64,000 nucleotides of DNA from Escherichia phage vB-EcoP-XT73. The position numbers and the translations under genes are program-made. The stretch lies in sequence record OR757436.1; one strand, written 5' to 3'. Below the pieces are notes generated by a model. That model had not been told where the DNA came from and ran no database searches. It was given only the letters and a program-made list of their open reading frames with translations. Position 1 is the first letter of the stretch, and each line of letters opens with the position of its first letter. This document shows positions 829 to 59,682 of this stretch, piece after piece.

Positions 829-1376
829 AGAAAAAGAAAGTGTTTGCATTTGATATCGAAAGTAATGCACTATACGATGACATAACTAAAGTATGGTGTA
901 TTTACATTTTCGATGTTGAAACTGGTGAAAGGTGGGGCTACCGGCCTCACCAAATTGAAGATGGGATTCGTAAACTTACAGAAGCAGATGTACTAGTAGG
1001 TCATAATATTATTGACTTCGACTTACCTGCTCTGAAAAAGATATATCCCTCTTTGATTAAATATAATTTTAACGTCTTTGACACTCTGTGTCTTAGTCGA
1101 TATCTTAAACCTGACCGTATTGGTGACAGTCCTGAGTATCCGAAAGGTGACCCTAGACATGGCCCAAGAGGTCATGGTTTGAAGCAATGGGGTGAGTTCT
1201 TAGAGGAACTTAAAGGAGACTACGGTGAGCAAGAGGAAGCATGGGATGCTTTCACTGAAGATATGTTTACTTATTGTGAACAGGACGTTAACTTAACAGT
1301 TAAGGTTTATAAATACTTGTGTGAACTCACAGGATTTGACCCTTACGACCCACCTTCATTATATTGGAAAATGTAA
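822..1376 (+). CDS. DNA polymerase fragment 1: 3'-5' exonuclease domain (T7 gp5-like N-terminus)
   Basis: [48 protein letters not shown] and YCEQDVNLT match the T7 gp5 exo motifs (DIEANAL, HNGHKYDVPAL, DTLVLSRL, HALEAWGYRLGEMKGEY, YNVQDV). GTG start overlaps the helicase stop. The ORF stops at the exo/pol boundary. Confidence 0.85.
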
Positions 1377-1377
1377 A

Positions 1378-2739
1378 ATGATTGTTATCCCGATTAACCG
1401 AATTGAAGATAAGGTTGCTCAACAACCTGATATCACTGTCGGTCGTCACTTCATTGAACAGCTGATTAACAACAACTTGATTCCAGATGGTATCTGTCCC
1501 ATCATTACTGGTGGGGCTGTTCGTGACGCTGTTCTTAATAACATAGCACCTCATGACATCGATATCTTTATTGTCAGAGGACAGACACCAAGAACTCAAA
1601 ACACTTTCATCCGTCATGAACAGTGGCAAGCTCTTGGGCGTGAGATTGAAAGCAATGTGAAAGAGTGGCTAGAGTCACAAGATATTGAGTATTCATCTCT
1701 TCTTGCTGAAACTACAGATGAACCATATACAGGAACTTCCCAATTAACATTCACTGATATCATTGAATTTCAGTGGCAGGGAACTCGAATCCAATTCATG
1801 TTTAATTATCCCACTTCTATCGAAGAGGTATTGGATAATTTTCCTATGATGTGTCGTGGTGCGATGACCCTTGAAAACCTATTCATGACTCCTCATGGAT
1901 ATTTGGCTATGACCGCTCCCTGTCCAGTGGTTGTTTCTAGTCGTGAAATCAGATATGTTCACAAGAAGTGGCCTAATTCTCAGGTATTAAGATTCTCATC
2001 TCCAGCAGTTGCACATCAATACATGGCCCAAACTCGATACCTTCCCACACCTCAGCCGGTTAGTCATCTGGTCAACGAACGGGGTCAGGTTGCTCTTATT
2101 GAGGATACAACAAGTGCTCAGTATTGTGTTGACCGAGATATGAGTCTATTCTTTGGTATACCTTATGAAGAGATTCAGTTAATGTCGAGTCTTAACGGCT
2201 CTGGTCGGGTTCATGCGTATTGGTCTGAAGGGTTGACAAACTTAACAACTAATACAAGAGGAGATCTCCTTGGTCGGGAAGAGGAACCTAATCGGAACAA
2301 TGTAATTGAAGGGGTGTTTGTAGCCCCTGCAATGCGCCGAGCACAAGAGTCACGAAATCTAAGCTCTACTCGTAGAACATCTTTTGAAGAAACTCTTGGT
2401 GTTACTAGCGATTCATTTGAGCGGTGGTTGTCTAGACGTTCTAATGGTCAATCAAATGGTTTGACTGTTAGCCGTCACCAGTTCTCTGGTCAGAGTTTAG
2501 CTGTTGGTAATAGCAACGCACCTGTTATGGCTGTGTGGACCGATGAAGGTGTGGCCCAAGATGTGGTAAGTAGTCTTGATGTCCCTTCTCATGGTGAATT
2601 AGCTGAGACCGTCAGCCGCAATCTCGCTGATCGGTTTGTTGCTAACAACCCTGAAGTATTAGAGCCTCAAACCCGTACAGTTCGGTTTGCCGATGAAGCG
2701 GGTCGTGGATTTTCTTTTGACATGGAAACAAATAACTAA
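1378..2739 (+). CDS. Pol-beta-superfamily nucleotidyltransferase-domain protein (CCA-adding/poly(A)-polymerase-like head motif) with a low-complexity S/T/R-rich C-terminus
   Basis: Motif PIITGGAVRDAVLNNIAPHDIDIFIV resembles the GGAVRD...DxD signature of class II tRNA nucleotidyltransferases. ATG sits 1 nt after the exo-fragment stop (ATGTAAAATG), suggesting translational coupling. Confidence 0.5.
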   Translation: MIVIPINRIEDKVAQQPDITVGRHFIEQLINNNLIPDGICPIITGGAVRDAVLNNIAPHDIDIFIVRGQTPRTQNTFIRHEQWQALGREIESNVKEWLESQDIEYSSLLAETTDEPYTGTSQLTFTDIIEFQWQGTRIQFMFNYPTSIEEVLDNFPMMCRGAMTLENLFMTPHGYLAMTAPCPVVVSSREIRYVHKKWPNSQVLRFSSPAVAHQYMAQTRYLPTPQPVSHLVNERGQVALIEDTTSAQYCVDRDMSLFFGIPYEEIQLMSSLNGSGRVHAYWSEGLTNLTTNTRGDLLGREEEPNRNNVIEGVFVAPAMRRAQESRNLSSTRRTSFEETLGVTSDSFERWLSRRSNGQSNGLTVSRHQFSGQSLAVGNSNAPVMAVWTDEGVAQDVVSSLDVPSHGELAETVSRNLADRFVANNPEVLEPQTRTVRFADEAGRGFSFDMETNN

Positions 2740-2748
2740 GGAATAAAA

Positions 2749-3282
2749 ATGAGTTTACTAGGAAGTGTTGAACTACACGATGTAATTGATAATGGCTATC
2801 TGGATGCGGAGCATAAGTATGTTAACGCTGCTAGTGTGGATATCCGTATTGGTGATACTATCCTTGTTGAAGAACAGGCTGATGGCATCGTTGATATTGA
2901 TGCGAAAGAAAATCTTCAGTGGAAGGAAGTAAAAATCCCTGAAGAGGGCTTGGTTATCACTCCGGGTCAGTTCTTCTTGGCTCACTCTATGGAGGAGTTT
3001 AACCTTCCAGATAACATCTCAAGCCTGTTTGTTCTGCGTTCGTCTATGGCTCGTTGTGGTTTGAACCACCTTCACGCCGGATGGGCAGATGCAGGATTTA
3101 ACAGCAGTAAGCTGACATTTGAGTTCCATAACGTAACCAAGCATCATAGCTTACGAGTTCGTGCTGGTATGCGTGTTGGTCAGATGGTGATGTTTGAGCA
3201 CTCTCATGCAGGGGAACATTCCTATGCAGTGAAGGGTCGTTATAATAACTCTGAAGGTGTAGTTGCATCTAAAGGTGTGTAA
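2749..3282 (+). CDS. dcd: dCTP deaminase / dUTPase-superfamily protein
   Basis: 177 aa with SVDIRIGD, VITPGQFFLAHSMEEF and RSSMARCGL, typical of dCTP deaminases. Confidence 0.75.
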   Translation: MSLLGSVELHDVIDNGYLDAEHKYVNAASVDIRIGDTILVEEQADGIVDIDAKENLQWKEVKIPEEGLVITPGQFFLAHSMEEFNLPDNISSLFVLRSSMARCGLNHLHAGWADAGFNSSKLTFEFHNVTKHHSLRVRAGMRVGQMVMFEHSHAGEHSYAVKGRYNNSEGVVASKGV

Positions 3283-3489
3283 ATGACTGAAGAAGAGTTC
3301 CAAGAACTGAAAGGTTTGACTACCGAGGTTCAATTAAAAGCTATTACTTTTGGTCGAGCATGTCATCAATTTGATATATGCGTCGAAAGCAGTAAAGAAG
3401 CTTGTAAGAGCTATATGGATAAGAAGCACCTTGAATGGGGTAAAGCCTCTAACGATCTTTATAACTATATGAAGGGTTTAGTAAAATGA
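3283..3489 (+). CDS. hypothetical protein
   Basis: 68-aa ORF tightly packed between neighbours. Confidence 0.4.
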   Translation: MTEEEFQELKGLTTEVQLKAITFGRACHQFDICVESSKEACKSYMDKKHLEWGKASNDLYNYMKGLVK

Positions 3490-3683
3490 AAAAGTGGATT
3501 GTTCGTGTACATGATGATACGACTGGAGACTTGGTAGCTGTAGATTTTATTAACACTCGAGAACACGCCCGTAGGGTCAAAAACCAATACAAGTCTACTT
3601 TTAGACTCAATAAGGTTACAATAGGAAAAGCTATTGTGAATAACGAAGGTGCTCTTTTTGCCAACAGCAAGGTTTATTATTAA
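3486..3683 (+). CDS. small protein, paralogue family A
   Basis: Shares W-I/V-R-V ... F-T-R-x-x-A-R-x-x-K ... K-V-x-Y-Y pattern with the ORFs at 3683, 3892, 6442 and 13529. Confidence 0.5.
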   Translation: MKKWIVRVHDDTTGDLVAVDFINTREHARRVKNQYKSTFRLNKVTIGKAIVNNEGALFANSKVYY

Positions 3684-3892
3684 TGAGACCAATCACTATG
3701 AGACAGTTTTGGTTAGCAAAGATTAAGTGGGCATCAGGTGGTATGACTATGACTGCACTTCCTACTCGTCAACAGGCTCGAGATTTTAAAAAGACTATGC
3801 TTACTGGTGACGTGGTCAATAGTATCAGTATCCATAAGGCCAAGGAGTATTCTTCTGGTCGTGTTTATATCAGCGGAAAGGTACATTACTAA
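3683..3892 (+). CDS. small protein, paralogue family A
   Basis: Tandem paralogue; start overlaps the upstream stop. Confidence 0.5.
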   Translation: MRPITMRQFWLAKIKWASGGMTMTALPTRQQARDFKKTMLTGDVVNSISIHKAKEYSSGRVYISGKVHY

Positions 3893-4101
3893 TGAAAAAG
3901 ATGTGGGCGATTCGTGTTGTTTGGGATCTTGATCAACACACGAGAAAAGATAGCATCAAATTGTTTGACACTCGCAAAGAGGCTCGTATTGCTAAGAAAC
4001 AGTTGAAGACTCTGGGCACAATAGTAAAAAGCGCTGATATACATCGCTGGTACGAAGACCCTAACTCGGGTTCTTTTATGTCTAAAGTAATTTATTACTG
4101 A
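3892..4101 (+). CDS. small protein, paralogue family A
   Basis: MKKMWAIRVVWD...FDTRKEARIAKKQLK...KVIYY; third tandem copy. Confidence 0.5.
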   Translation: MKKMWAIRVVWDLDQHTRKDSIKLFDTRKEARIAKKQLKTLGTIVKSADIHRWYEDPNSGSFMSKVIYY

Positions 4102-45184: not shown

Positions 45185-46726
45185 TTAGTAGCTCTGATTC
45201 CATCTGCTTACGTTTGCCTCATACAAAGAAGCGCTTCCGTAGCTAACATCATGCTTAGAGCGACCACGATGTGTAACAGAGCACGCTGAATAGCGCATTG
45301 CATCCATTAAGTCATCATGTTCTTTAATAATCTTACCAACCTTACGGTGATATCTAGCTTTCTCTTCGAATAGCTTAGCGTTAGCGGCTGTGTTAAAGAC
45401 TTTAAAGCGTCCACTCATCATTCTTTCTCGGATATCTGTGATTCCCGGTTCTACAAAGAAGTTCTTTTTACCATCCATTCCAATTTTGTTGTAGAAGGTC
45501 TCACTCTGTACGTTAACTCCTGCATTCTTATAGAATTGAGCAACAGATGAGCCACTACCTTTCTCAGTATTGTCCGCATCATGCGGTAGGATGACAGGAA
45601 TCCACTGACCACGACCATTAATAGCTGGAGCATGATACACTGGAGTAAAGCCACCTTCTTTATATGAGTCGTAAACATAGATAGTATCCGTGTTTGCATC
45701 GTAAGCTGTCCAAACAGCAGCAGTTGGGTGATCAATACCAATATCAATTGCACAGACACGTTTCCACGTATCAGGAATTTCGAATGGTTCACATTTAATT
45801 GTGTCATCCGATACATCATATATCAAACCACTTCCTAACAATGGCATACCTTTTGAACGCATCTCTAACTGCCACGCTGGAATACCTTCAGTCATATCTT
45901 TTATATCTTGGTCAGTGATGTGTCCACCTAGGTCTGCATGAGCATCCCACCAAGAAGCATTCTGGAAATACAGAGAACCTGTGTTCTCATCTCCTTCACC
46001 TTTCATAAATTTATCTACCAGTTCAGTTAAACCGTTCTCTGGTGTAGCTGTAATTGTAACTAGACCTTTAGTTGTGAGTGTACGTGTGACGCACTGTGCG
46101 AATATAGCCATAGACTCGTATGGATCTTCTTCGTCTAACCAAATGTAGTCAACTGTTGCACCCATCAATGTGTGTTCACCCTGTTGGGTTGAACGGAATT
46201 CTAATGTACTTAAACCGTCAAACTCTCCTCTCTCATTTTGATGTTTGATTTGTACGATTTGAAGTTTGTTACCATCTCGTTCTATCGTATCAATGACGAT
46301 AGCATCACGAGGAATGACACCTGTCCCTAATAAATTTGTATCCTTTCCGATAGGTGTACCAAACAATTCCTTTTGCAATACTTTCCTTGTGGAATCCCCT
46401 GTAATACCAACTGCCCATGCTAAGATAGGTCTTTTAAATTTATATCCTGTCCACCAAGTTGGGTAGCGACCTGTGACATGACAAGCAAACTCGTATGCCT
46501 CGCTATAAGATTTACCAACACGGTTCGCTGCACACAAGAATCTAAAGCGATGCTTCAATCCTGCTGCATAAAATTTCTTTTGGAAGTCATACGCCTTGAA
46601 AGACAAAATCTTATTATACTTCCTCCATTGGTCACGCTCTTTCAACATATTCAATAGTGCTTTCTTTTCGTCTACACTAAGGTTGTTACCAGTTAGAGCT
46701 TCATAAATTTGTTTATCTAATGACAT
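45185..46726 (-). CDS. terminase large subunit
   Basis: 513 aa with Walker A-like AANRVGKS and Walker B-like VDYIWLDEED, then a nuclease-type C-terminal half. Confidence 0.8.
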   Translation of the reverse strand: MSLDKQIYEALTGNNLSVDEKKALLNMLKERDQWRKYNKILSFKAYDFQKKFYAAGLKHRFRFLCAANRVGKSYSEAYEFACHVTGRYPTWWTGYKFKRPILAWAVGITGDSTRKVLQKELFGTPIGKDTNLLGTGVIPRDAIVIDTIERDGNKLQIVQIKHQNERGEFDGLSTLEFRSTQQGEHTLMGATVDYIWLDEEDPYESMAIFAQCVTRTLTTKGLVTITATPENGLTELVDKFMKGEGDENTGSLYFQNASWWDAHADLGGHITDQDIKDMTEGIPAWQLEMRSKGMPLLGSGLIYDVSDDTIKCEPFEIPDTWKRVCAIDIGIDHPTAAVWTAYDANTDTIYVYDSYKEGGFTPVYHAPAINGRGQWIPVILPHDADNTEKGSGSSVAQFYKNAGVNVQSETFYNKIGMDGKKNFFVEPGITDIRERMMSGRFKVFNTAANAKLFEEKARYHRKVGKIIKEHDDLMDAMRYSACSVTHRGRSKHDVSYGSASLYEANVSRWNQSY

Positions 46727-47417: not shown

Positions 47418-48050
47418 TTACTTACAATCACCAACGGACAGGTTAAACATCTTACCTAAAGTAACTATCTCACCCTCCCACGGAAGTTCTACACCCTTCT
47501 CTTCCTCTAAAAGAATAGAGCCGTCGACCAAAAATTTTTCGTAGTCTCGCAGTGCGTCGTCTACTAACTCACTCTTGTGAATCCACGTAATTGTTTCTGT
47601 ACCATCTTCTTCGATTCGAACATCACGATGCCATTCATCTTTAGAGGTAATGTAATCATGGAGCATTTCATATTCAGCTTCTTCAATCATCTCAATCATT
47701 GCACGAGCATAGTCAGGAAGGTGATCATGTTTAGTAGATTCATATTCAACTACTTCCAGAGTAGATGGTTGTGTTTTAGTTTTAGAGTTAGGGCGAGTAG
47801 TATGAATCAAATCTAACATGTTTTTGTTCTCCGTAATATTTGGTTTAAGAATACTTCCACTATACAAATCTTGTACAGCCAGTCCTGAGATGTTTCCCAT
47901 AGTTTCTAAATGTTGTAAGCTACAACCAGAGCGACATAGCTGTGAATTATACTCGTTAAGGTCCATCGCTTGGGTGTGGAAAGGAGAGCCAGAAGGGAAA
48001 CTACCTCCATAAATACCTTCCATGTTACGTGCGATTATTTGATTATTCAT
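47418..48050 (-). CDS. hypothetical protein
   Basis: 210-aa ORF at the head of the minus-strand block. Confidence 0.45.
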   Translation of the reverse strand: MNNQIIARNMEGIYGGSFPSGSPFHTQAMDLNEYNSQLCRSGCSLQHLETMGNISGLAVQDLYSGSILKPNITENKNMLDLIHTTRPNSKTKTQPSTLEVVEYESTKHDHLPDYARAMIEMIEEAEYEMLHDYITSKDEWHRDVRIEEDGTETITWIHKSELVDDALRDYEKFLVDGSILLEEEKGVELPWEGEIVTLGKMFNLSVGDCK

Positions 48051-48297
48051 CTGTCTCTCCCTTGCTGTAATCTTTATACGTTTCTACTTTGTAAGTGCAG
48101 AATGCTCTAAAGAAGAGCCAACCTAAGCTACTCACATCAATGGTAATATCGAAATCTGTTTCATCATCTAGGTCAACAAGACGACCTAAGCATGTAGCTT
48201 CCATCCCATCTTCAGAGTCACTATTGACTACGAAAGCGTATGTCTCCGTTCTGAACCGAGGCACTATCTCTGATAAAAAGTCTAATACTAAATTCAT
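48043..48297 (-). CDS. hypothetical protein
   Basis: 84-aa acidic ORF, first gene of the minus-strand block; RBS AGGAG. Confidence 0.45.
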   Translation of the reverse strand: MNLVLDFLSEIVPRFRTETYAFVVNSDSEDGMEATCLGRLVDLDDETDFDITIDVSSLGWLFFRAFCTYKVETYKDYSKGETDE

Positions 48298-48342
48298 AAC
48301 TCTTCTCCTCTGAATAAGAGTATAAAGGGCTAGTCATATCTA

Positions 48343-49281
48343 ACCCGTAAAGGCCACGTCATCAAAGATGACTACCTCATACTAACAACCCGTGTACTCT
48401 GAAGTAAAGGGCATGTCATAAAGGCACCCTCATGTTAAGGCCATGTCATTAGTCATACTTGATACATCTTGCTATAGAGAAGCAGATGAATAAACAGAAG
48501 ACTATTACTAACCAAAAGATTATTTCCATTAAGACCTATCCACCCACGTACTGAATCTCAACTTACCACATTCCTTACACTTCCATGTTGATAGGTAGAG
48601 ACCGTGTATTCTTTCATCCCCGTAAGCTTTACGAAGAAGGTAGTAATTGTGCTTACACTTCATCCGTCTAAATACTTTAATTAGATTCATTAAGTTCTCT
48701 CTTAAGCTTATATATAACAGTTCAAAATTCTGATTTGACCGAGTGGGGCTAGGCCCTCTGCGGCGAATTGTTAAAAAGGGGGAGTCCTCAAATAAAAAAT
48801 GGTTATTGGCAATGCCTTTACACCTTCTTCCACGTTCCAACCTTTCCCCGTGCCTACTCCCCGTAATTATTTCCCCGTGTATACCATCCTATTCATTACC
48901 TACCCGTTTATTTAGTACCCCTTTACTGAATGGATGAAAGGCTAGCACTGTATAGGCACATTCATAACCAGGATAATAATACCGTATTGTTACCGTTCAG
49001 CTCCCCATAGTTTGATTGTAAATAGTTTCAATAGTGATTGTTATGAGTGCAATAATGATGTATGTATTAATTAAGTGGATAATGGTTGATGTGTGTTATT
49101 GTTTCTTTTAATTACTTTCTTTTTCAGCGTGCATGAGCGTAGCGAATGGTCTTTGATGTTTGAGTTATACAATTATTTAAGTGGTATATTATTACCGCAC
49201 TATCTGGCAATGTTCCCCCGTGGTCTGTCCTGCGGTTGTATGTTCCCCGTCCTATAGAGATAGTAGAAATATTTTACCCGT
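48343..49281. repeat. non-coding region with at least 9 dispersed copies of a (T)(T)CCCCGT(G/A) motif and 3 copies of a CA(T/C)GTCAT motif
   Basis: Copies seen at about 48343, 48388, 48617, 48846, 48859, 48873, 48902, 49216, 49245 and 49276; lies between the divergent minus and plus blocks with no convincing ORF. Confidence 0.6.
48529..48664 (-). CDS. small zinc-ribbon-like protein
   Basis: MKCKHNYYLLRKAYGDERIHGLYLSTWKCKECGKL shares a C-K-H ... C-K-x-C-G pattern with the small ORFs at 58889 and 59062; weak RBS. Confidence 0.3.
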
Positions 49282-49554
49282 AGGACTTGCTTTCTTTATT
49301 AAGAAGTAGTAAATTGTATTCATCGAAGCGAAGCAGTGATGCAAAGTAGCTAGATGGTAGTAAGCTCCATGAAGGATAATCGTCCTAAGTAGTGGAGAAT
49401 GTTTAAAGATAAGGACTCTGCGATTGACTGGTGAAAGCTGGAACACTATCGAGTCAGTGAAGAGGCCAACTGAGCAATGGCCCTACGTATAAAAGAGAAA
49501 TACGTGCTATCTTGTGAAACATGAAACCAAATACACATCAATGAGGATTCACAA

Positions 49555-50046
49555 ATGGCTAAAGTAATGCAGGTAGTTAATCTGGCAAGCTATGTACTGG
49601 TTGCCGCGATCGGTGTTAGTGCACTGGTAACATCTCTTTCTGATAAGGCTATCGCTAGTCCAGCTCCTGCAACTAATGCCGCTGATGTTTTCGCTAGTTC
49701 CATTAATAAAGGTTGGATGATTTGCAACGGTGCGGATAGTGACGGCAATACCATCGCGTTAAAGATGAAATTTAGTAACGTAACAAATGAAGGCGTTCTC
49801 TTTCAATCTAAGACGTTGGATGGTCAGCCTAACAGTGATCTGGTACTCAAGCGTGCTGATAATGATGCGGATATGGTGACGTATGGCACTGTACAACGTT
49901 ACGAAGACGTTAAAGCTGTAACCAACCTAGTGAGTTATGGTCCGGTCAATGAGTCGATGATTGCTACCACTGTTTACAATAACGCTGATAACGCTGTTTA
50001 TACTATTCACGTTAATCTGTCAAATTGTATTAAAGCTAGCAAATGA
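49555..50046 (+). CDS. secreted/periplasmic protein (signal-peptide-like N-terminus)
   Basis: MAKVMQVVNLASYVLVAAIGVSALVTSLS; RBS GAGGA. Confidence 0.5.
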   Translation: MAKVMQVVNLASYVLVAAIGVSALVTSLSDKAIASPAPATNAADVFASSINKGWMICNGADSDGNTIALKMKFSNVTNEGVLFQSKTLDGQPNSDLVLKRADNDADMVTYGTVQRYEDVKAVTNLVSYGPVNESMIATTVYNNADNAVYTIHVNLSNCIKASK

Positions 50047-50150
50047 AAAAATTAATTTGCAATACTAGCTCAACCTTGCTATCTTTAGCTTTCACCGCGA
50101 TTGCTACGGCAATAGCATATTATGTTCTTGTTGTTTTGGGAGTGTAGGTT

Positions 50151-50402
50151 ATGGCTATCAAAGAAGTTAAATTGTCTAACGGTTTTTCCTGTTTCGTCGG
50201 TCGTTCTGAAATCATGTTTAATACACTTGATGGTCAGATAACTTTTCCTATCGTCACTTTTTGCAAGATGGAATATCAGCCTCTTAAGGACTGGTTAGCC
50301 TTTGCTAATTTCGAAATTAACCGCGATGACTTCCGCTCAATCTATATTGACGGTGATTTGACTCTGGCTAACCTGCTTAGTGAAGGATTAATACATGGCT
50401 AA
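50151..50402 (+). CDS. hypothetical protein
   Basis: 83-aa ORF. Confidence 0.4.
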   Translation: MAIKEVKLSNGFSCFVGRSEIMFNTLDGQITFPIVTFCKMEYQPLKDWLAFANFEINRDDFRSIYIDGDLTLANLLSEGLIHG

Positions 50403-50649
50403 AGAGCATAGCTTTACTATCCCGACTTACAATTACGGTGAGATTGATTTCTCATATACGGATAACTCTGACAAGTGTCTAATCTTGTTTGTTGTCGGTG
50501 ACAATATTAATGCGATCGACTTCCCTGCGGTCGCTCTAATCATGGATGGCGTTAAAGCAGGCCATTATCTGGCGCAACGTGGGATTCTTCTGTCGCTGGA
50601 AGAAATCGAACTACTTAGAGTAGCACTATTTAAAGGTAAAGGCAACTAA
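50395..50649 (+). CDS. hypothetical protein
   Basis: 84-aa ORF overlapping the upstream stop. Confidence 0.4.
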   Translation: MAKEHSFTIPTYNYGEIDFSYTDNSDKCLILFVVGDNINAIDFPAVALIMDGVKAGHYLAQRGILLSLEEIELLRVALFKGKGN

Positions 50650-50848
50650 TGATCCATGATTATTTTTGGCGGTGCTTGTTCGTTGTTACAGTGGCGTTAT
50701 TCGTAGCTGATATGCTTTATTCTTACATTCTATAGAGTCCGGTTGTGTTATTTCTGTTTTTGTTTGTCGTTGGCTTCATTTCTTTAAATTATTTATTGAT
50801 TGTTGCCGCTTTCGATATTCTTAAACTCATTACTAAAGGTTAACTATT

Positions 50849-51214
50849 ATGTGGTTTATTAAATTCGTCGTTAAAACGGTTGTAGGCTTTTTTCTGGTTG
50901 TTCTTCTGTTGGGTGTCCTGCTATCAGCTATGGGTAGCGTTAAGGCTGCAACATTTTCCCCTGCTACGGTTGACGGCTTGCAATGTACCTACCTTGTAGA
51001 AAACTATTCGACTGGTAAAAAGTCACCTAAGGTTATTATTTTACATGTAAATGATTTCGAGCATGTACAATCATACGCTAAGACTATTCAGCTAGTGAAT
51101 GAAACCACTGGCAAACAAATCACGGTCGATCACTTGATGCGCTCGTCGTTGACGCTCTTTGACGAGTCTATGAATGAAGTAGAATCCGGTAACGGTCAGT
51201 GTGTAAATCCTTAA
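50849..51214 (+). CDS. membrane-anchored or secreted protein
   Basis: N-terminal hydrophobic stretch VVGFFLVVLLLGVLLSAMGSVKA. Confidence 0.45.
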   Translation: MWFIKFVVKTVVGFFLVVLLLGVLLSAMGSVKAATFSPATVDGLQCTYLVENYSTGKKSPKVIILHVNDFEHVQSYAKTIQLVNETTGKQITVDHLMRSSLTLFDESMNEVESGNGQCVNP

Positions 51215-51293
51215 TCCTTGTGGGCCTGTTCTTTTTGACCATTGTCGGTGCAATGGGCCTTTTCTATGCTGTCATAATGTTAGGAGTTTAAAA

Positions 51294-51617
51294 ATGAAGA
51301 AGTTAATCGTTGGCTTGGCTGTTGGTTTGTCTTTGTTTGCTGGTAGTGCTAGCGCATACATGAAATGCGGAAGCATTGGAGTGGTCACAGCCTCTAATGG
51401 TGCTAAAAATCTCACCGCTTTAGGTAAGACTTGGTCCGCTACTGAGGTTATCACTTTAGAAAATGGCTTAAAGGCTGTAATCTATGATAACCGGAAAGAT
51501 GGTTCAATTCTTCGGGTTGTTCCTACGGAAGATGGGAAAACGGTTGCCATTATCTATTATCGAGATGCGGAATCTAATCTTAATGGTAATCCTGTGCTTT
51601 CCGGTATGTGCCGATAG
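51294..51617 (+). CDS. secreted protein with Sec-type signal peptide
   Basis: MKKLIVGLAVGLSLFAGSASA followed by a hydrophilic mature region. Confidence 0.5.
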   Translation: MKKLIVGLAVGLSLFAGSASAYMKCGSIGVVTASNGAKNLTALGKTWSATEVITLENGLKAVIYDNRKDGSILRVVPTEDGKTVAIIYYRDAESNLNGNPVLSGMCR

Positions 51618-51954
51618 TCTATCTGATGCTCTAAATCCTTCCTATAAGCCTCCTAGTGAGGCTTTTCTCATTTCTAAGGTGATTGTATTCCTTACCCTCC
51701 TTTAGCTCATTGTGATGCGTCTGAGAGCGTCAAATAGTGCTTTACAAGCCTGTTTTAGTATGTTATTCGCGTGCGCGTTCCTTTACCTACTCCTCTACGA
51801 AAAAGTTTAAAATAATTTGCTTTGCCCTATTGCATTACTCACTGGTTGGCGTATACTTCAATTCATCGGGTACGATGAAAAACATACAAGGCAAGAAATT
51901 GCCCCGCTCTTTAAAAATCAGGCTAGAAAGTGAAAAAATACTTGAAAAAAGTAT

Positions 51955-51982
51955 TTGACAACTGGAAAGCCTAACCTATAAT
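51955..51982 (+). promoter_or_regulatory. sigma70-type promoter (consensus -35 and -10)
   Basis: TTGACA, 16-nt spacer, TATAAT, preceded by A-tracts. Confidence 0.6.
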
Positions 51983-52101
51983 GAGCATAAGTCAGCGATG
52001 ACGTGAAACATCCCCGCTCTTTAAAAACTTATCATCTTGCCCTTTCGCATAGATTCAAGCGAGATAAGGGAAAAGAATAAAAGAAGATGATAAAAAAGAG
52101 G

Positions 52102-52130
52102 TTGCAAACGTGGTTAAGGTAGTTCATACT
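52102..52130 (+). promoter_or_regulatory. sigma70-type promoter candidate
   Basis: TTGCAA, 17-nt spacer, CATACT, A-rich upstream. Confidence 0.45.
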
Positions 52131-52407
52131 AACCACAAGTTAACAAAACAACGTTAACTAGTTCCCAAGTCAACGTATCGCGGGAAAGGTGGCACATAGT
52201 GCAGCGAGTAGTTCGGGAGTAGGCGCCCCGTTAATGAATAAGTAAGCCTTTAATGATGCAGTGATTAGCAGACACTATAAAAGGCTAAAAACGCTCTTTA
52301 ACAATATGGATCATAAGTTTAAGCCTTATCGCTTAATCTTCAATCAAATAAAGCTGGTTGATATATCCTCCCAATAGCGGGAACGACGAAAAAGATTAAA
52401 AAAGCGG

Positions 52408-52436
52408 TTGACAGCAAAAACATCATGGTCCATACT
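52408..52436 (+). promoter_or_regulatory. sigma70-type promoter candidate
   Basis: TTGACA, 17-nt spacer, CATACT, preceded by aaaaaagcgg. Confidence 0.5.
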
Positions 52437-53357
52437 GAGCACTCACTAAGCAAAACACCGCTTCAGTGAAAAGCGAAACAACGGCTAACAGTTGCATGAC
52501 GTGAGAAAGCACGTCGATAGATTTACCGCTCTTTAATAATTTAAACATTCCCCTATATCGGTTAAATATGTTTGATGATAATAACCATCGGAAAACATAC
52601 CAGATAAAACGGTGTAAAACTCCCTAAAATATCAGGGTAAACAGTTTTACATTCCCTTACTGGAAACGCCACCACTGATAAGCGGATTCATTGAGTACAC
52701 GCAACGGCTTAAGCTAATCGCCCACGGTTAAGGGTAGCGGCGGCCATCGCTAACACGGTGCTACAGTGAAAGAAACTAATCAGGGTAGGCAATCCCGACG
52801 AATTAACGCTCAATTGAGAGCGGCGGGGAGTGGTTAAAAAGTGGCAAATTGCTATTTAACAATAAGGTTTAATGCGAACGTTTACGATGTGAACGGCTTG
52901 AGATTCATCACAAGATGAAAGTACATAGCCGGTTTATGTAGTAAACCTGCCGAAAGATATAAAACGCCGGAATACTAGGCGGTTAGTGACTTTTTCGCAA
53001 TAGTATCCCGTAGTGGGCGATGACTAGCGAAAGAGAGCTGATATAAAAGGATAAGCGGGAGCGAAAGCAAAGTAAACGATATTGCCGACGGTTACAGTAA
53101 TGTAATTAAATAGAGTCGGACGCATAGCCTTATTGTGATGATTGATCATCGCTATCAGGTCGGCTTCGTTTATAGCGACTAATTAAAGATACCAGATGAA
53201 ACATCACGGATAAGGGGGCGGCAAGGTTAACTCCTGACAAGACCGCCCCGCTTATCAATAATTACTTAACAATGAGTGATTATCGATAAGTCAATGGCGA
53301 CTTAAAAAGCTCATAGAGAGCGGGGCATAGTGCCCTTACAATTGAAAGGTGAATATC

Positions 53358-54257
53358 ATGGCTAAAATTTTTAATCTGGTAAAAGAATCTGGTTTTAACG
53401 CACTGGCTAACAACATTCGTAGCAACAACGCGGCGATTAAACAAGATGTTTCTAATTTTCTGTTAGGGCACTTGCAGCACTTCCGCAGTAACGGCAAGAA
53501 GTTAGATGTATTGCAGTCGGCGGTTGATTTTCTGTTAACCGAACGTTTCCGCGATATGGATGTGATCGCCACTGCAATTACTTTCTTAACCCCAATCAAG
53601 TTTAACACCGATGCGGCAAATGGTCGTAAGAAGTGGATTAATCTGGAAGGTGAAGCGAAAGCGAAAGAAGATGCGAAAGAAGCGCAAATTAAGGCCAAAA
53701 TGGAACAAAACCGTGCTCGCTGGTCAAATGCTTTCGAAAATTTTGCTTTAGGCCGTGAAATTGAAGTCGATAACCCTAACTTCTACAAGGGTTGCAATGA
53801 CAACGTGGCGGCACACCTGCAAATCCCGGCGAAAAACAAGGAAGATTTTAATCAGGATATTTACGCTTTAGTTGAACGCTTGAATGCAATCCGTATCGAA
53901 GCCAAATTGTTGGCTGATGAGCGCAATGGCGCTACCAGTGATAATACTATTGCCTTGAGTGAAGAAGTGGGGAAAGTTAAAAAGTCCTTTGATTCACTCA
54001 TCAAGAAAGTCACGGCCTCAACGGTAGCGATCTCGGATGATTATCTGATGAACGCATCAAGCAAGGAATTAGGATCACTCGATTCATACGCTGATGAAAT
54101 GGAAAAGACTGTTGCAGCTATGCAGGAGAAGTTAGAAAGTCTGCGCGGTCGTATCTCTTCAACGGTTGCTACCCGTACCGAACAAGCTGCGAAAGAAGAA
54201 GAGGAAGAAGTATTGCGCAAGGCAGCTGAGATTATGGCGGCACGTCAGGCAGCATAA
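53358..54257 (+). CDS. hypothetical early protein
   Basis: First long ORF downstream of the promoter cluster; GAAAGGTG RBS before ATG 53358; charged helical sequence. Confidence 0.5.
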   Translation: MAKIFNLVKESGFNALANNIRSNNAAIKQDVSNFLLGHLQHFRSNGKKLDVLQSAVDFLLTERFRDMDVIATAITFLTPIKFNTDAANGRKKWINLEGEAKAKEDAKEAQIKAKMEQNRARWSNAFENFALGREIEVDNPNFYKGCNDNVAAHLQIPAKNKEDFNQDIYALVERLNAIRIEAKLLADERNGATSDNTIALSEEVGKVKKSFDSLIKKVTASTVAISDDYLMNASSKELGSLDSYADEMEKTVAAMQEKLESLRGRISSTVATRTEQAAKEEEEEVLRKAAEIMAARQAA

Positions 54258-54288
54258 GTAAGACAATTCTAATAAACATGAGGCGCTA

Positions 54289-54318
54289 TCTTAACGGGTA
54301 GCGCCTTTTCTTTTATCA
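54289..54318 (+). terminator. rho-independent terminator
   Basis: ggcgctatc-ttaacgg-gtagcgcc hairpin followed by ttttcttttat. Confidence 0.6.
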
Positions 54319-55083: not shown

Positions 55084-55527
55084 GTGGCTAAATCTAAAAT
55101 CAGCATGAAGGGCGGTCGTTGTTTTGCTATCTCTGAATTAGAGAAAGAGAAACCAAAGGCAACCAATCACGTCAGTAAGCGTAGTTTAAAACGTCGTGCT
55201 GCAAAGGCTGAAGCTGAATCCCATATCCCTTCTAGTGTGGCAAAACGTGTAGGCCATCGTGTCCATCGTGCTGATGCGTTATTGTTAGCCGATCATAAAC
55301 GTTCTTTGTTAAAGAGCGGGGGAGCTAAAACAGAAGAGGAGAAGAAGTTAGAAATCTTCTGTAATGGTCGCACCCGTGGTAAACAGAAGTTTAAGGGTAG
55401 CACGAAAGACCCTCAGGCTTTTCCTAAGACAAGCCAGTGTGCGCCTGATGTTTTCTACGCAGATAGTAAACACAAATGGGGAGTTGAAAAATACATTGAC
55501 CCCATAAAAGAGGCGAGGGTAAAATGA
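55084..55527 (+). CDS. strongly basic protein (nucleic-acid-binding candidate)
   Basis: 147 aa rich in Lys/Arg/His. Confidence 0.4.
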   Translation: MAKSKISMKGGRCFAISELEKEKPKATNHVSKRSLKRRAAKAEAESHIPSSVAKRVGHRVHRADALLLADHKRSLLKSGGAKTEEEKKLEIFCNGRTRGKQKFKGSTKDPQAFPKTSQCAPDVFYADSKHKWGVEKYIDPIKEARVK

Positions 55528-59289: not shown

Positions 59290-59598
59290 GTGAAACAAAA
59301 GCATTTTATCATCTCAACCTTACTACTAATGACAACCATTGGTATCATCTCTGTTAATAGTGCAGAGATTGGGGTTAAGTATCAGAGTGTTCAGCAATGC
59401 ACTCTTAAAGAGCATAGCTTAACTGGTATCAAAGAATCTCATGGTATGGTAAGAGATGGGCTTCTGTTTGTAGAAACAACTTCTGGTAATCGTGTCATGG
59501 CTACTGATGGCAAAGAAACAAAGTATGCCTACTTCCCTGATACAACAGGCTACTACACTTTTGAAGAGAAGGATTGTAAGAAGTCTTTCTCTTTATAA
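59290..59598 (+). CDS. secreted protein with signal peptide
   Basis: MKQKHFIISTLLLMTTIGIISVNSAE. Confidence 0.5.
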   Translation: MKQKHFIISTLLLMTTIGIISVNSAEIGVKYQSVQQCTLKEHSLTGIKESHGMVRDGLLFVETTSGNRVMATDGKETKYAYFPDTTGYYTFEEKDCKKSFSL

Positions 59599-59607
59599 AA
59601 GAATCAA

Positions 59608-59682
59608 GTCCCTATAGTTAAAAGGATATAACAGATTTCTTCTAAAAATCCATTCTAGGTTCGAGTCCTAGTGGGGACGCCA
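59608..59682 (+). tRNA. tRNA-Arg (anticodon TCT)
   Basis: Hand-folded cloverleaf: acceptor gtcccta/tggggac (one G-U), D stem gtta/taac with GG in the loop, anticodon stem gattt/aaatc with loop cTTCTaa, T stem ctagg/cctag with loop ttcgagt, discriminator G and encoded CCA. Confidence 0.75.

Follow-up and report, generated by a model that had tools for sequence, protein, structure and literature searches.

Here, we found that the repeated motif in a spacer of the 64-kb window, the whole stretch of DNA analysed and identified as a Kuravirus (phiEco32-like) coliphage, is, judged by its letters, boxA, the NusB/S10 antitermination signal, and that a folded RNA covering most of this spacer is a product under selection, as shown by purifying selection and covariation. 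We consider it likely that the early unit is built like an rRNA operon, in which boxA recruits the Nus factors and a structured leader RNA and the phiEco32 gp124 homologue follow. Both the boxA identity of the motif and the large structured RNA appear to be unreported before. An earlier suggestion that the region encodes non-coding RNA is strongly supported, and its main content turns out to be one RNA of about 0.9 kb whose structure is backed by covariation. The boxA reading explains the repeated motif and suggests a route by which a long untranslated early leader could be transcribed.

Within the cluster, each of the four copies on the + strand matches the gamma-proteobacterial boxA consensus, GYTCTTTAANA (PMC5725501), with the critical C4 and T6 in place. 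Window-wide, consensus matches number seven against 0.6 expected. The 10-nt core CGCTCTTTAA (repeat family D1) occurs five times, four on the + strand (51905, 52015, 52292 and 52527) and one on the - strand (55309), against 0.14 expected, and none of 100 shuffles reached five. The preliminary description had reported a 16-bp motif in four direct copies together with inverted variants. Four + strand copies are indeed found for the 10-nt core, whereas the full 16-mer is present only twice. The inverted elements exist (52807-52822 and 53308-53321), but they are local GCTC-loop-GAGC hairpins, and the one at 52807-52822 shows covariation between TA and CG (19 versus 15 sequences). Likewise, the idea of a protein-binding array survives as a predicted NusB/S10 boxA site on the nascent RNA, not as a DNA iteron array.

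Every + strand boxA lies about 25-155 nt downstream of a predicted promoter and directly after a hairpin, and about 830 nt of untranslated structured RNA follow boxA-4. The stretch 52519-52536, which includes the start of boxA-4, is invariant across 35 phages. No boxA was found in the early operon at 49555-51617, which is translated from its start. We rejected the internal GCTATTTAACA at 52851-52861 as a second, spacer-type boxA: its C4 is changed, and distant clades read GCTAATTAACA.

Is boxA a common element of the related phages? All 45 carry one to five copies, exclusively on the transcribed (+) strand: three to five in each of 35 close relatives and one to three in each of ten distant loci, which belong to two clades with gp124 identities of 47-70%. 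In the close relatives, the copies at about -1065 from the ATG (boxA-3, in 35/35) and about -830 and the promoter at about -950 are all fixed in position. The last copy of the distant loci is found 870-936 nt before the ATG, and the distance from last boxA to ATG spans 830-936 nt over close and distant phages. A hairpin precedes the last boxA in the distant clades too, but it is of different sequence. At boxA-4, many relatives have GCTCTTTAACAATTTA, which is exactly the E. coli rrn boxA-spacer (CACugcucuuuaacaauuua; PMC2724277). The locus L061 reads CACTGCTCTTTAACAATTTA and matches the rrn cac-boxA-spacer at 20/20 positions; the window copy matches at 15/16. In the related Salmonella phage 7-11, whose antitermination strategy was noted as still undefined (PMC8948821), neither a gp124 homologue nor, on the early transcribed strand of the right-end 5.4 kb, a boxA was found.

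Such copies could also serve mainly as a decoy, with very abundant early boxA RNA titrating NusB, S10 and SuhB off the rrn operons and thereby shutting off the host; antitermination would then be a secondary effect. This would be in line with three to five consensus copies behind consensus-strength promoters in every phage of the close set, with the exact match to the rrn boxA and its flanks, and with the high affinity at which NusB/E alone binds boxA RNA (PMC5725501). We nevertheless regard a decoy as quite improbable, since it leaves both the 0.9-kb conserved downstream fold and the fixed distance from boxA to ATG unexplained and does not require every promoter to have its own boxA right before an untranslated RNA.

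The early host-polymerase promoter cluster that had been proposed for this region is right, though published already: the SU10 paper describes three sigma-70 promoters between genes 120 and 121, as in phiEco32, as well as a terminator downstream of its CDS121 (PMC4281155). In our scan, the perfect TTGACA/TATAAT promoter (P2) scored 12/12, and relatives carry equivalent consensus promoters. The proposed promoter at about 52408 (P4) scored 10/12, while the one at about 52102 (P3) can be read in the sequence but falls under the scan threshold. P3 and P4 have a 14-nt repeat in common, TAAAAAAG(A/C)GGTTG (repeat family D14), and P1 was called solely because a boxA lies about 50 nt downstream. The position of P4, about -950 from the ATG, is kept in 35/35 close relatives, and the promoter is also present in distant clades; its -10 element is CATAAT in most relatives, and transcription is predicted to start at about 52441-52444. 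For P2 and P3, the predicted starts are at about 51989 and 52138. Since the 14 promoter-like sites between 48.5 and 56 kb, with 16.7 expected, do not exceed chance, the evidence for the cluster lies in the quality of the sites and in the -950 promoter conserved in all relatives. Based on the shared promoters and the flanking terminators (Table 1), we predict that the RNA and the gp124 homologue are co-transcribed; the terminator scan revealed no intrinsic terminator at their junction. The distant locus L053 has the same transcription-unit layout as the window, and there, as in the SU7 annotation, a terminator likewise directly follows the gp124 homologue.

Table 1. Features of the early unit in the window (P, predicted promoter)
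Feature	Position	Strand	Basis
Intrinsic terminator, closes upstream early operon (ORF end 51617)	51646-51674	+	terminator scan: AAGCCTCCTAGTGAGGCTT then T-run
P1, possible weak promoter TTGCAT-16-TATACT	51830-51857	+	read from sequence; under scan threshold
Hairpin GGCAA-GAAA-TTGCC, then boxA-1 GCTCTTTAAAA (51906-51916)	51890-51916	+	consensus match
P2, TTGACA-16-TATAAT, 12/12; A-tract just upstream	51955-51982	+	promoter scan
Hairpin GATG-loop-CATC, then boxA-2 (52016-52026)	51997-52026	+	consensus match
P3, TTGCAA-17-CATACT, preceded by AAAAAAGAG	52102-52130	+	read from sequence; under scan threshold
Hairpin AGCCTT...AAGGCT, then boxA-3 GCTCTTTAACA (52293-52303)	52247-52303	+	conserved position
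P4, TTGACA-17-CATACT, 10/12; preceded by AAAAAAGCG	52408-52436	+	promoter scan
5' leader hairpins	52443-52526	+	fold and covariation
boxB-like hairpin GACGTG-AGAAAG-CACGTC (helix 4)	52497-52516	+	three covarying pairs
boxA-4 and spacer GCTCTTTAATAATTTA	52528-52543	+	consensus match, conservation
Domain A, closed by 52546-52553/52825-52832	52546-52838	+	several helices with 3-6 pairs changed on both sides
Domain A parts: arms; long arm; hairpin	52567-52599, 52600-52663; 52668-52790; 52807-52822	+	
Hairpin overlapping invariant 19-mer GCAAATTGCTATTTAACAA (52844-52862)	52839-52857	+	conservation
Domain B, closed by 10-bp helix 52859-52868/53127-53136	52859-53136	+	fold and covariation
Domain B arms	52887-52939, 52946-53059, 53085-53119	+	
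3' domain	53135-53336	+	helix 53135-53156/53188-53207 around hairpin 53158-53180
3' domain, further hairpins	53211-53254, 53256-53285, 53287-53304, 53308-53321, 53322-53336	+	
Shine-Dalgarno AAGGTGA and ATG of gp124 homologue	53346-53360	+	sequence, annotation of relatives
phiEco32 gp124 homologue, 299 aa	53358-54257	+	homology
Strong intrinsic terminator directly 3' of gp124 homologue; closes unit	54280-54317	+	terminator scan

The RNA comprises about 915 nt (52443-53357, + strand) between the last promoter and the gene that follows it. Its at least 44 conserved helices fall into a hairpin/boxA module on the 5' side, two multi-helix domains, each of them closed, and an array of hairpins on the 3' side. 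For a long-range closing helix we obtained two mutually incompatible predictions, neither with covariation. The block 52308-53357 is almost without indels, and mean pairwise identity amounts to 87.2% in the RNA block compared to 83.8% in the adjacent gene. Across 35 phages, canonical pairing reaches 99.4% over the 244 pairs of the 44 helices. Changes on both sides were observed for 70 of these pairs, against 28.5 ± 2.5 in shuffles (0/500 reached 70) and 3-12 with slid partners, where the counts take in inherited changes and mosaic recombination blocks, as linked non-pairing columns were seen. In the helix 52946-52951/53054-53059, 6/6 pairs are compensated, and the top covariation pairs, which were found without any predicted structure, are fully Watson-Crick switches. 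That G-U cells far outnumber A-C cells (1006 versus 59) marks the + strand as the one that folds. Folded as a single sequence, the RNA reaches -290.6 kcal/mol, while shuffles reach -223 ± 8 kcal/mol (z = -8.5).

The distant clades keep this fold. In a sequence-only alignment, 59-79% of their pairs are canonical versus 33-47% with slid partners; the two clades, each folded separately, yielded 97 and 127 compensated pairs, and over three clades compensatory changes affect 39 of the 52 consensus pairs of the 3' domain. A covariance model of the arm 52664-52800 gave weak distant-clade matches (E = 0.045 and 0.26) at an effective sequence number of 0.93 and was too narrow, so a sequence alignment with projected structure was used for these clades.

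In relatives, the spacer is found about 2.3 kb away from the genome end or the terminal repeat. It had been described as ORF-free over about 1.4 kb, which holds for 51959-53348 (1.39 kb; longest ORF 54 aa on either strand) but not for the full 51700-53340, where a 73-aa GTG ORF occupies 51737-51958, a poorly conserved stretch without codon periodicity. Could the spacer then be only a promoter cluster, as the preliminary description primarily read it, followed by neutral sequence or by unannotated small genes? Some GenBank records place 9-10 small hypothetical CDSs across the region, and ORFs of 31-42 aa are present on both strands. However, variable sites are distributed over the codon phases as 140/148/143 in the conserved block, whereas the neighbouring gene shows 74/52/242. 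The block has neither a 3-nt substitution periodicity nor a conserved open frame, so that small ORFs with conserved coding potential are absent. The few indels and 87% identity are moreover incompatible with neutrality, and covariation is extensive. We find this reading hardly credible and regard the small CDS annotations of the region in public records as spurious.

The conserved block might instead act as DNA, be it as a transcription-activated origin, a packaging site or an array of protein sites, with the RNA structure being incidental. Some phage replication origins, e.g. the T7 primary origin, are located just downstream of promoters, and the distance to the genome end (or terminal repeat) seen in relatives would suit such a function. 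Yet compensatory changes preserve pairing in 70 pairs, the ratio of G-U to A-C cells indicates selection on one RNA strand and not on duplex DNA or a cruciform, and boxA is strand-specific, with no other iterons. A function at the DNA level is accordingly very improbable.

A covariance-model check of the region for known RNA families, with GOLLD, ROOL, OLE, group I/II introns, RNase P, tmRNA, 6S and rRNA among them, matched none: at gathering score, Rfam 15 found only a tRNA-Arg at 59608 in the window, and a permissive scan (E <= 10) of 51500-53500 yielded chance-level matches only (E = 1.2-5). ARAGORN found no tRNA in the region, and nothing similar to the RNA occurs in E. coli complete genomes. 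Six matches to the invariant 19-mer in a genome collection, from unrelated phyla, were rejected as homologues, as only 19-20-mers matched and their number equals the chance expectation. Carriers of the RNA are cultured phages of E. coli and Shigella together with uncultured relatives. RNA and gp124 homologues are present in 97 phage records each, with the same organism breakdown, and are found together in the distant clades as well; database matches of gp124 are limited to phages that also carry the RNA. A metagenome scan with the gp124 alignment returned only 8 close relatives, and IMG/VR scans returned 5. For gp124 itself, we found no Pfam family, no PDB sequence match and, for its AlphaFold model (pLDDT 73), no Foldseek match at E <= 0.001; its PHROG family is without assigned function.

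What does the RNA do? It may affect the expression of gp124 in cis, or it may work in trans as RNA or RNP, perhaps joined by gp124. It is quite possible, if short of probable, that it represents a new large functional class produced in the manner of rRNA and acting in trans, as a catalytic, scaffold or decoy RNA or as an RNP, possibly with gp124. Somewhat unlikely, in our view, is a purely cis-acting 5' leader of gp124, i.e. a stabiliser, a translational operator or a riboswitch- or thermometer-like sensor that controls when or how much gp124 is made, with no function in trans. The RNA is contiguous with gp124 within a terminator-bracketed unit, no intrinsic terminator separates them, and their records show the same organism breakdown; in addition, 52521-52527 is paired with 53348-53354, at the Shine-Dalgarno sequence, in one RNAalifold solution. 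This pairing shows no covariation because it is invariant. It is also unsupported in the distant clades and clashes with a further predicted helix. To our knowledge, bacterial 5' UTR regulators fall far short of the roughly 44 conserved helices that extend here over about 870 nt, and a leader conserved more than the gene that it regulates speaks against this alternative as well.

In the rRNA operon-like unit that we favour, transcripts would begin at each of three or four host sigma-70 promoters that have an A-tract just upstream, and every transcript would present a hairpin and then a boxA within about 25-155 nt. boxA on the nascent RNA would bind host NusB-NusE(S10) and, by extension, lead to a Nus complex (NusA, NusG, SuhB) on the RNA polymerase. 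The modified polymerase would be Rho-resistant, may chaperone co-transcriptional folding as at rRNA genes, and would transcribe the leader of about 915 nt, predicted never to be covered by ribosomes. Transcription is predicted to proceed into the gp124 homologue and to end mostly at the intrinsic terminator at 54280-54307. With its high A content and an overall excess of G over C, the RNA is no evident substrate for Rho loading. boxA may thus serve folding or elongation rate rather than act against Rho, as was also argued in the case of rRNA (PMC5725501).

According to this model, a virulent, non-lambdoid phage would borrow the N-independent, rrn-type antitermination of its host. The analysis uncovers a large and ornate RNA that is held more tightly than the neighbouring gene and provides a natural case for asking whether Nus/SuhB is a general folding chaperone for large non-rRNA RNAs. 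Therapy studies make use of the carrier phages, and E. coli K-12 derivatives now support their growth (BASEL collection), so the function of the RNA is directly testable by genetics, probing and cryo-EM. If true, the unit would be a phage 'pseudo-rRNA operon' that copies the host rRNA production line with consensus promoters and an rrn boxA. Among structured RNAs without an assigned function, its RNA would rank with the largest in any E. coli phage that is cultured and genetically tractable, and a trans-acting RNA or RNP would operate in the first minutes of infection.

Among known systems, the E. coli rrn leader, which combines tandem promoters, boxB-boxA-boxC and a complex of NusA/B/E/G, SuhB and S4, resembles the phage unit in its several strong sigma-70 promoters with upstream A-tracts, in the succession of hairpin, boxA and AAUUUA-type spacer, and in the long untranslated, highly structured RNA downstream. 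In rrn, too, the hairpin precedes boxA (PMC8632103), and rrn boxB and boxC were reported dispensable (PMC2724277). In contrast to rrn, the phage element resides on a virulent phage, no boxC was recognised by eye in the window, and Nus recruitment is what we infer; the RNA runs into a protein gene and is not rRNA, with no Rfam SSU/LSU match and no counterpart in E. coli genomes.

A lambdoid nut site (boxA-spacer-boxB plus N) similarly places a promoter-near boxA on a phage early RNA, here presumably for a termination-resistant host polymerase. lambda boxA is CGCTCTTA, whereas the full rrn-type CGCTCTTTAA with an extra U is found here (lambda and rrn sequences: PMC2724277). Unlike in nut, all copies have their hairpin upstream of boxA. 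The phage is not lambdoid but virulent, and an rrn-type boxA works without N. We rejected a lambda-type nut site on the grounds of the 5' hairpin, the rrn-type boxA and a scan of five neighbouring proteins, in which no N-like family was identified.

In size (about 0.6-0.9 kb), in its many covarying conserved helices and in its conserved unpaired islands, the RNA is comparable to GOLLD, ROOL, OLE and raiA, of which GOLLD and ROOL are known from phages or prophages. It differs in matching no Rfam family by sequence or structure, even at E <= 10, and in belonging to a defined transcription unit that includes boxA and, downstream, a conserved partner gene. The T7 early region, in which promoters A1-A3 are followed by an RNase III-processed leader, likewise combines a very strong host-polymerase promoter cluster near the genome end with a structured leader and early genes. 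The T7 leader is short and carries single RNase III hairpins without a boxA, whereas the leader described here is about 0.9 kb long and contains at least 44 helices and Nus-type signals.

Finally, a stand-alone consensus boxA near the promoter shields long untranslated RNA from Rho upstream of CRISPR arrays and in the suhB 5' UTR (Stringer 2020; Baniulyte 2017), and the phage copies share both this consensus and the short distance downstream of the promoter. Here, by contrast, boxA belongs to a phage early unit, is organized in tandem promoter-boxA modules and precedes a single large folded RNA instead of a repeat array.

The window phage is a phiEco32-like podophage (Kuravirus, Gordonclarkvirinae), and a search of the phage collection with 51600-53400 returned 97 Escherichia/Shigella phage records at 76-96% identity and no match outside these records. 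The spacer is flanked 5′ by a small early operon (last ORF ending at 51617; terminator at 51646-51664) and 3′ by the homologue of phiEco32 gp124 (ATG at 53358), for which no Pfam family, PDB relative or fold match was found. Terminators at 51646 and 54280 bracket a unit holding the promoters, boxA, RNA and gp124; the corresponding gap in relatives measures 1.7-2.1 kb and is largely without annotation. Elsewhere among the early genes, a tRNA-Arg gene (anticodon TCT, 59608-59682) is the sole Rfam or ARAGORN match in the window. A second stretch poor in genes (48050-49555, ~1.5 kb) separates the leftward late genes from the first early ORF that points rightward; it probably includes the genome terminus or a terminal repeat.

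All three promoter sequences proposed in the preliminary description are present. Sites resembling promoters are no commoner around the spacer than chance predicts (14 against 16.7 expected), so the case rests on site quality and conservation: TTGACA-17-CATAAT lies ~950 nt 5′ of the gp124 ATG in 35 of 35 close relatives, and an equivalent promoter with upstream A-tracts occurs in two distant clades. The cluster as such is already known, the SU10 genome paper having reported three sigma-70 promoters in this spacer, as in phiEco32 (PMC4281155).

Features of the spacer and of the RNA preceding gp124
Feature	Position	Strand	Basis
Hairpin directly before boxA-1	51890-51903	+	
Promoter P2, TTGACA-16-TATAAT	51955-51982	+	promoter scan
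Hairpin directly before boxA-2	51997-52012	+	
Promoter P3, TTGCAA-17-CATACT	52102-52130	+	seen in sequence
Hairpin directly before boxA-3	52247-52288	+	
Promoter P4, TTGACA-17-CATACT	52408-52436	+	promoter scan
5′ hairpins + boxA	52443-52543	+	
Hairpin directly before boxA-4	52497-52516	+	
Domain A	52546-52838	+	
Hairpin	52839-52857	+	
Domain B	52859-53136	+	
3′ hairpin array	53135-53336	+	
Shine-Dalgarno + ATG	53346-53360	+	

A 16-bp motif had been described in four direct copies; this number holds for the 10-nt core CGCTCTTTAA (four + strand occurrences, 0.14 expected), whereas the full 16-mer occurs only twice. Judged by its sequence, the core is a boxA of the rrn type, boxA being the RNA signal that is bound by NusB-NusE(S10) and nucleates processive antitermination complexes. 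The rrn boxA reads UGCUCUUUA, or CACugcucuuuaacaauuua with its flanks, and that of lambda CGCUCUUA (PMC2724277). All four copies (51906, 52016, 52293 and 52528) fit the gamma-proteobacterial consensus GYTCTTTAANA (PMC5725501), which has seven matches in the window versus 0.6 expected, and every copy lies 3′ of one promoter. The 35 close relatives carry 3-5 consensus copies each within 2.3 kb 5′ of gp124, exclusively on the transcribed strand, and ten loci of the two distant clades carry 1-3, likewise on the + strand only, the last one 870-936 nt 5′ of the ATG. The final copy reads GCTCTTTAACAATTTA in many phages, as in rrn, and CACTGCTCTTTAACAATTTA in the related locus L061, which agrees with the rrn element at 20/20 positions; 52519-52536 is unchanged in 35 phages. 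No boxA was found in the other early operon of the window, which is translated from its start, nor in the 5.4 kb examined of the early region at the right end of Salmonella phage 7-11.

Three consensus matches fall outside the cluster, at 45319-45329 (+), 59403-59413 (-) and 55307-55317 (-), the last within ORF 55084-55527; slightly above the 0.6 expected, they may well be due to chance. The leader between P3 and boxA-3 also contains a ~75-100-nt module (52170-52270), present in only ~11 of 35 Kuravirus loci and ~75% identical to the minus strand of Salmonella phage 7-11 (NC_015938, locus L038, 3449-3519). The matching stretch is annotated as the 3′ part of CDS gp150, but at the protein level the two are not similar; the module has the look of a small RNA or DNA element that two phage families share in their early leaders.

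Is the block behind the last boxA coding? When the window was aligned to 17 distinct relatives, 52308-53357 proved almost without indels; the upstream part (51700-52300) is variable with large indels. Mean pairwise identity is 87.2% in the block versus 83.8% in the adjacent gene. Variable sites are distributed over the three phases as 140/148/143, compared to 74/52/242 in the gene. The absence of ORFs was borne out for 51959-53348, and the unbiased phases, together with covariation and folding of one strand, bear out the earlier suggestion of a non-coding RNA. In NC_070982 (L016, 967-2637) and NC_070989 (L032, 462-2052), the stretch of the structured RNA is filled, on either strand, with 9-10 CDSs of 30-50 aa named 'hypothetical protein'; as coding signal is absent, these calls are almost certainly spurious. 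Names such as 'terminase' or 'polymerase' given to upstream ORFs of 84-121 aa look doubtful as well.

In a covariation scan blind to structure, the highest ranks went to switches that are fully Watson-Crick (TA<->CG or AT<->GC). The RNAalifold consensus of 35 sequences has 44 helices comprising 244 pairs, with 99.4% canonical pair cells; 70 pairs changed on both sides, compared to 28.5 ± 2.5 after shuffling of columns (none of 500 shuffles reaching 70) and 3-12 when 3′ partners were displaced by 1-3 columns. The excess of G-U over A-C cells (1006 versus 59) indicates that the + strand folds, the one made by early transcription. Folding of the window sequence by itself gives -290.6 kcal/mol (shuffles -223 ± 8; z = -8.5) and essentially the same helices. 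In one consensus fold, AUUUACC (52521-52527), just 5′ of boxA-4, pairs with GGUGAAU (53348-53354), which covers the gp124 Shine-Dalgarno, and in an alternative 52526-52535 pairs with 53314-53323; both partners are invariant, and neither predicted pairing shows covariation.

How deep is this conservation? Searching with the gp124 protein, we found uncultured relatives at ~69% and ~50% identity (47-70% overall), among them five Logan contigs (L050, L051, L053, L055 and L057; genomes/contigs up to 96 kb). Where upstream sequence suffices, ~3 kb 5′ of gp124 lacks called genes, of which the last 1-1.5 kb was analysed; divergently oriented genes flank this stretch (positions about 900-4000 in these five contigs). 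Promoter, hairpin, boxA and the ~0.9-kb spacing to the ATG are kept, and in L053 a terminator directly follows the gp124 gene. The RNA itself is only 46-62% identical to that of the window. Projected through a sequence-only alignment, the Kuravirus structure gave 59-79% canonical pairs versus 33-47% in the slid control, and in several helices pairing reached 90-100% although most of their pairs had changes in both partners. Across three clades, 39 of 52 consensus pairs in the 3′ domain show compensatory changes, and the distant clades folded separately yielded 97 and 127 compensated pairs. Islands such as ATCGCCCACGG..AAGGG, CCCGTAGTGGGCGAT, TTGTGATGATTGATCATCGCT and ACCAGATGAAACATCACGG persist in all clades.

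Between the two domains, the invariant 19-mer GCAAATTGCTATTTAACAA (52844-52862) holds a boxA-like GCTATTTAACA (C4 -> A) and, taken together with its own flanks, resembles boxA-3 (31 nt, 74% identical). Since the distant clades read GCTAATTAACAATATGG at this site, a conserved RNA motif is more probable here than a working boxA; six genome-collection matches to the 19-mer were dismissed as chance.

The ~0.9-kb RNA is a real, strongly constrained structured RNA without a described family. Rfam gave no family match even at E ≤ 10, and E. coli genomes contain nothing similar. In a loose literature search for phiEco32 with boxA, antitermination or structured RNA, where two of six terms sufficed for a match, phiEco32 was absent from the top-ranked papers, and the BASEL account of Gordonclarkvirinae mentions neither boxA/antitermination nor structured RNA. 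Being present in cultured E. coli phages, the RNA is directly testable.

The unit combines strong promoters, a strand-specific consensus boxA and an RNA fold under selection. From established knowledge, we infer that the nascent boxA would recruit NusB/S10, then NusA, NusG and SuhB, and that the modified polymerase would resist Rho, the factor that normally ends transcription of untranslated RNA (PMC7665894; PMC2724277). In addition, this polymerase may keep the 5′ end of the RNA at the exit channel and assist its folding as a chaperone, in line with proposals for rRNA (PMC8632103; PMC5725501). As the RNA is rich in A and has G>C, such a role in folding/elongation may be no less important than shielding from Rho. 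Complexes of the rrn type are not known to bypass intrinsic terminators efficiently, which fits a functional terminator after gp124; lambda N, unlike rrn, is reported to suppress both kinds of terminator. Recognition of the repeat as an rrn-type boxA, here in a virulent phage, seems to be novel, as a variant of a known mechanism. The order of hairpin and then boxA in the window phage is that of the rrn operon, and opposite to that of lambda nut (PMC8632103).
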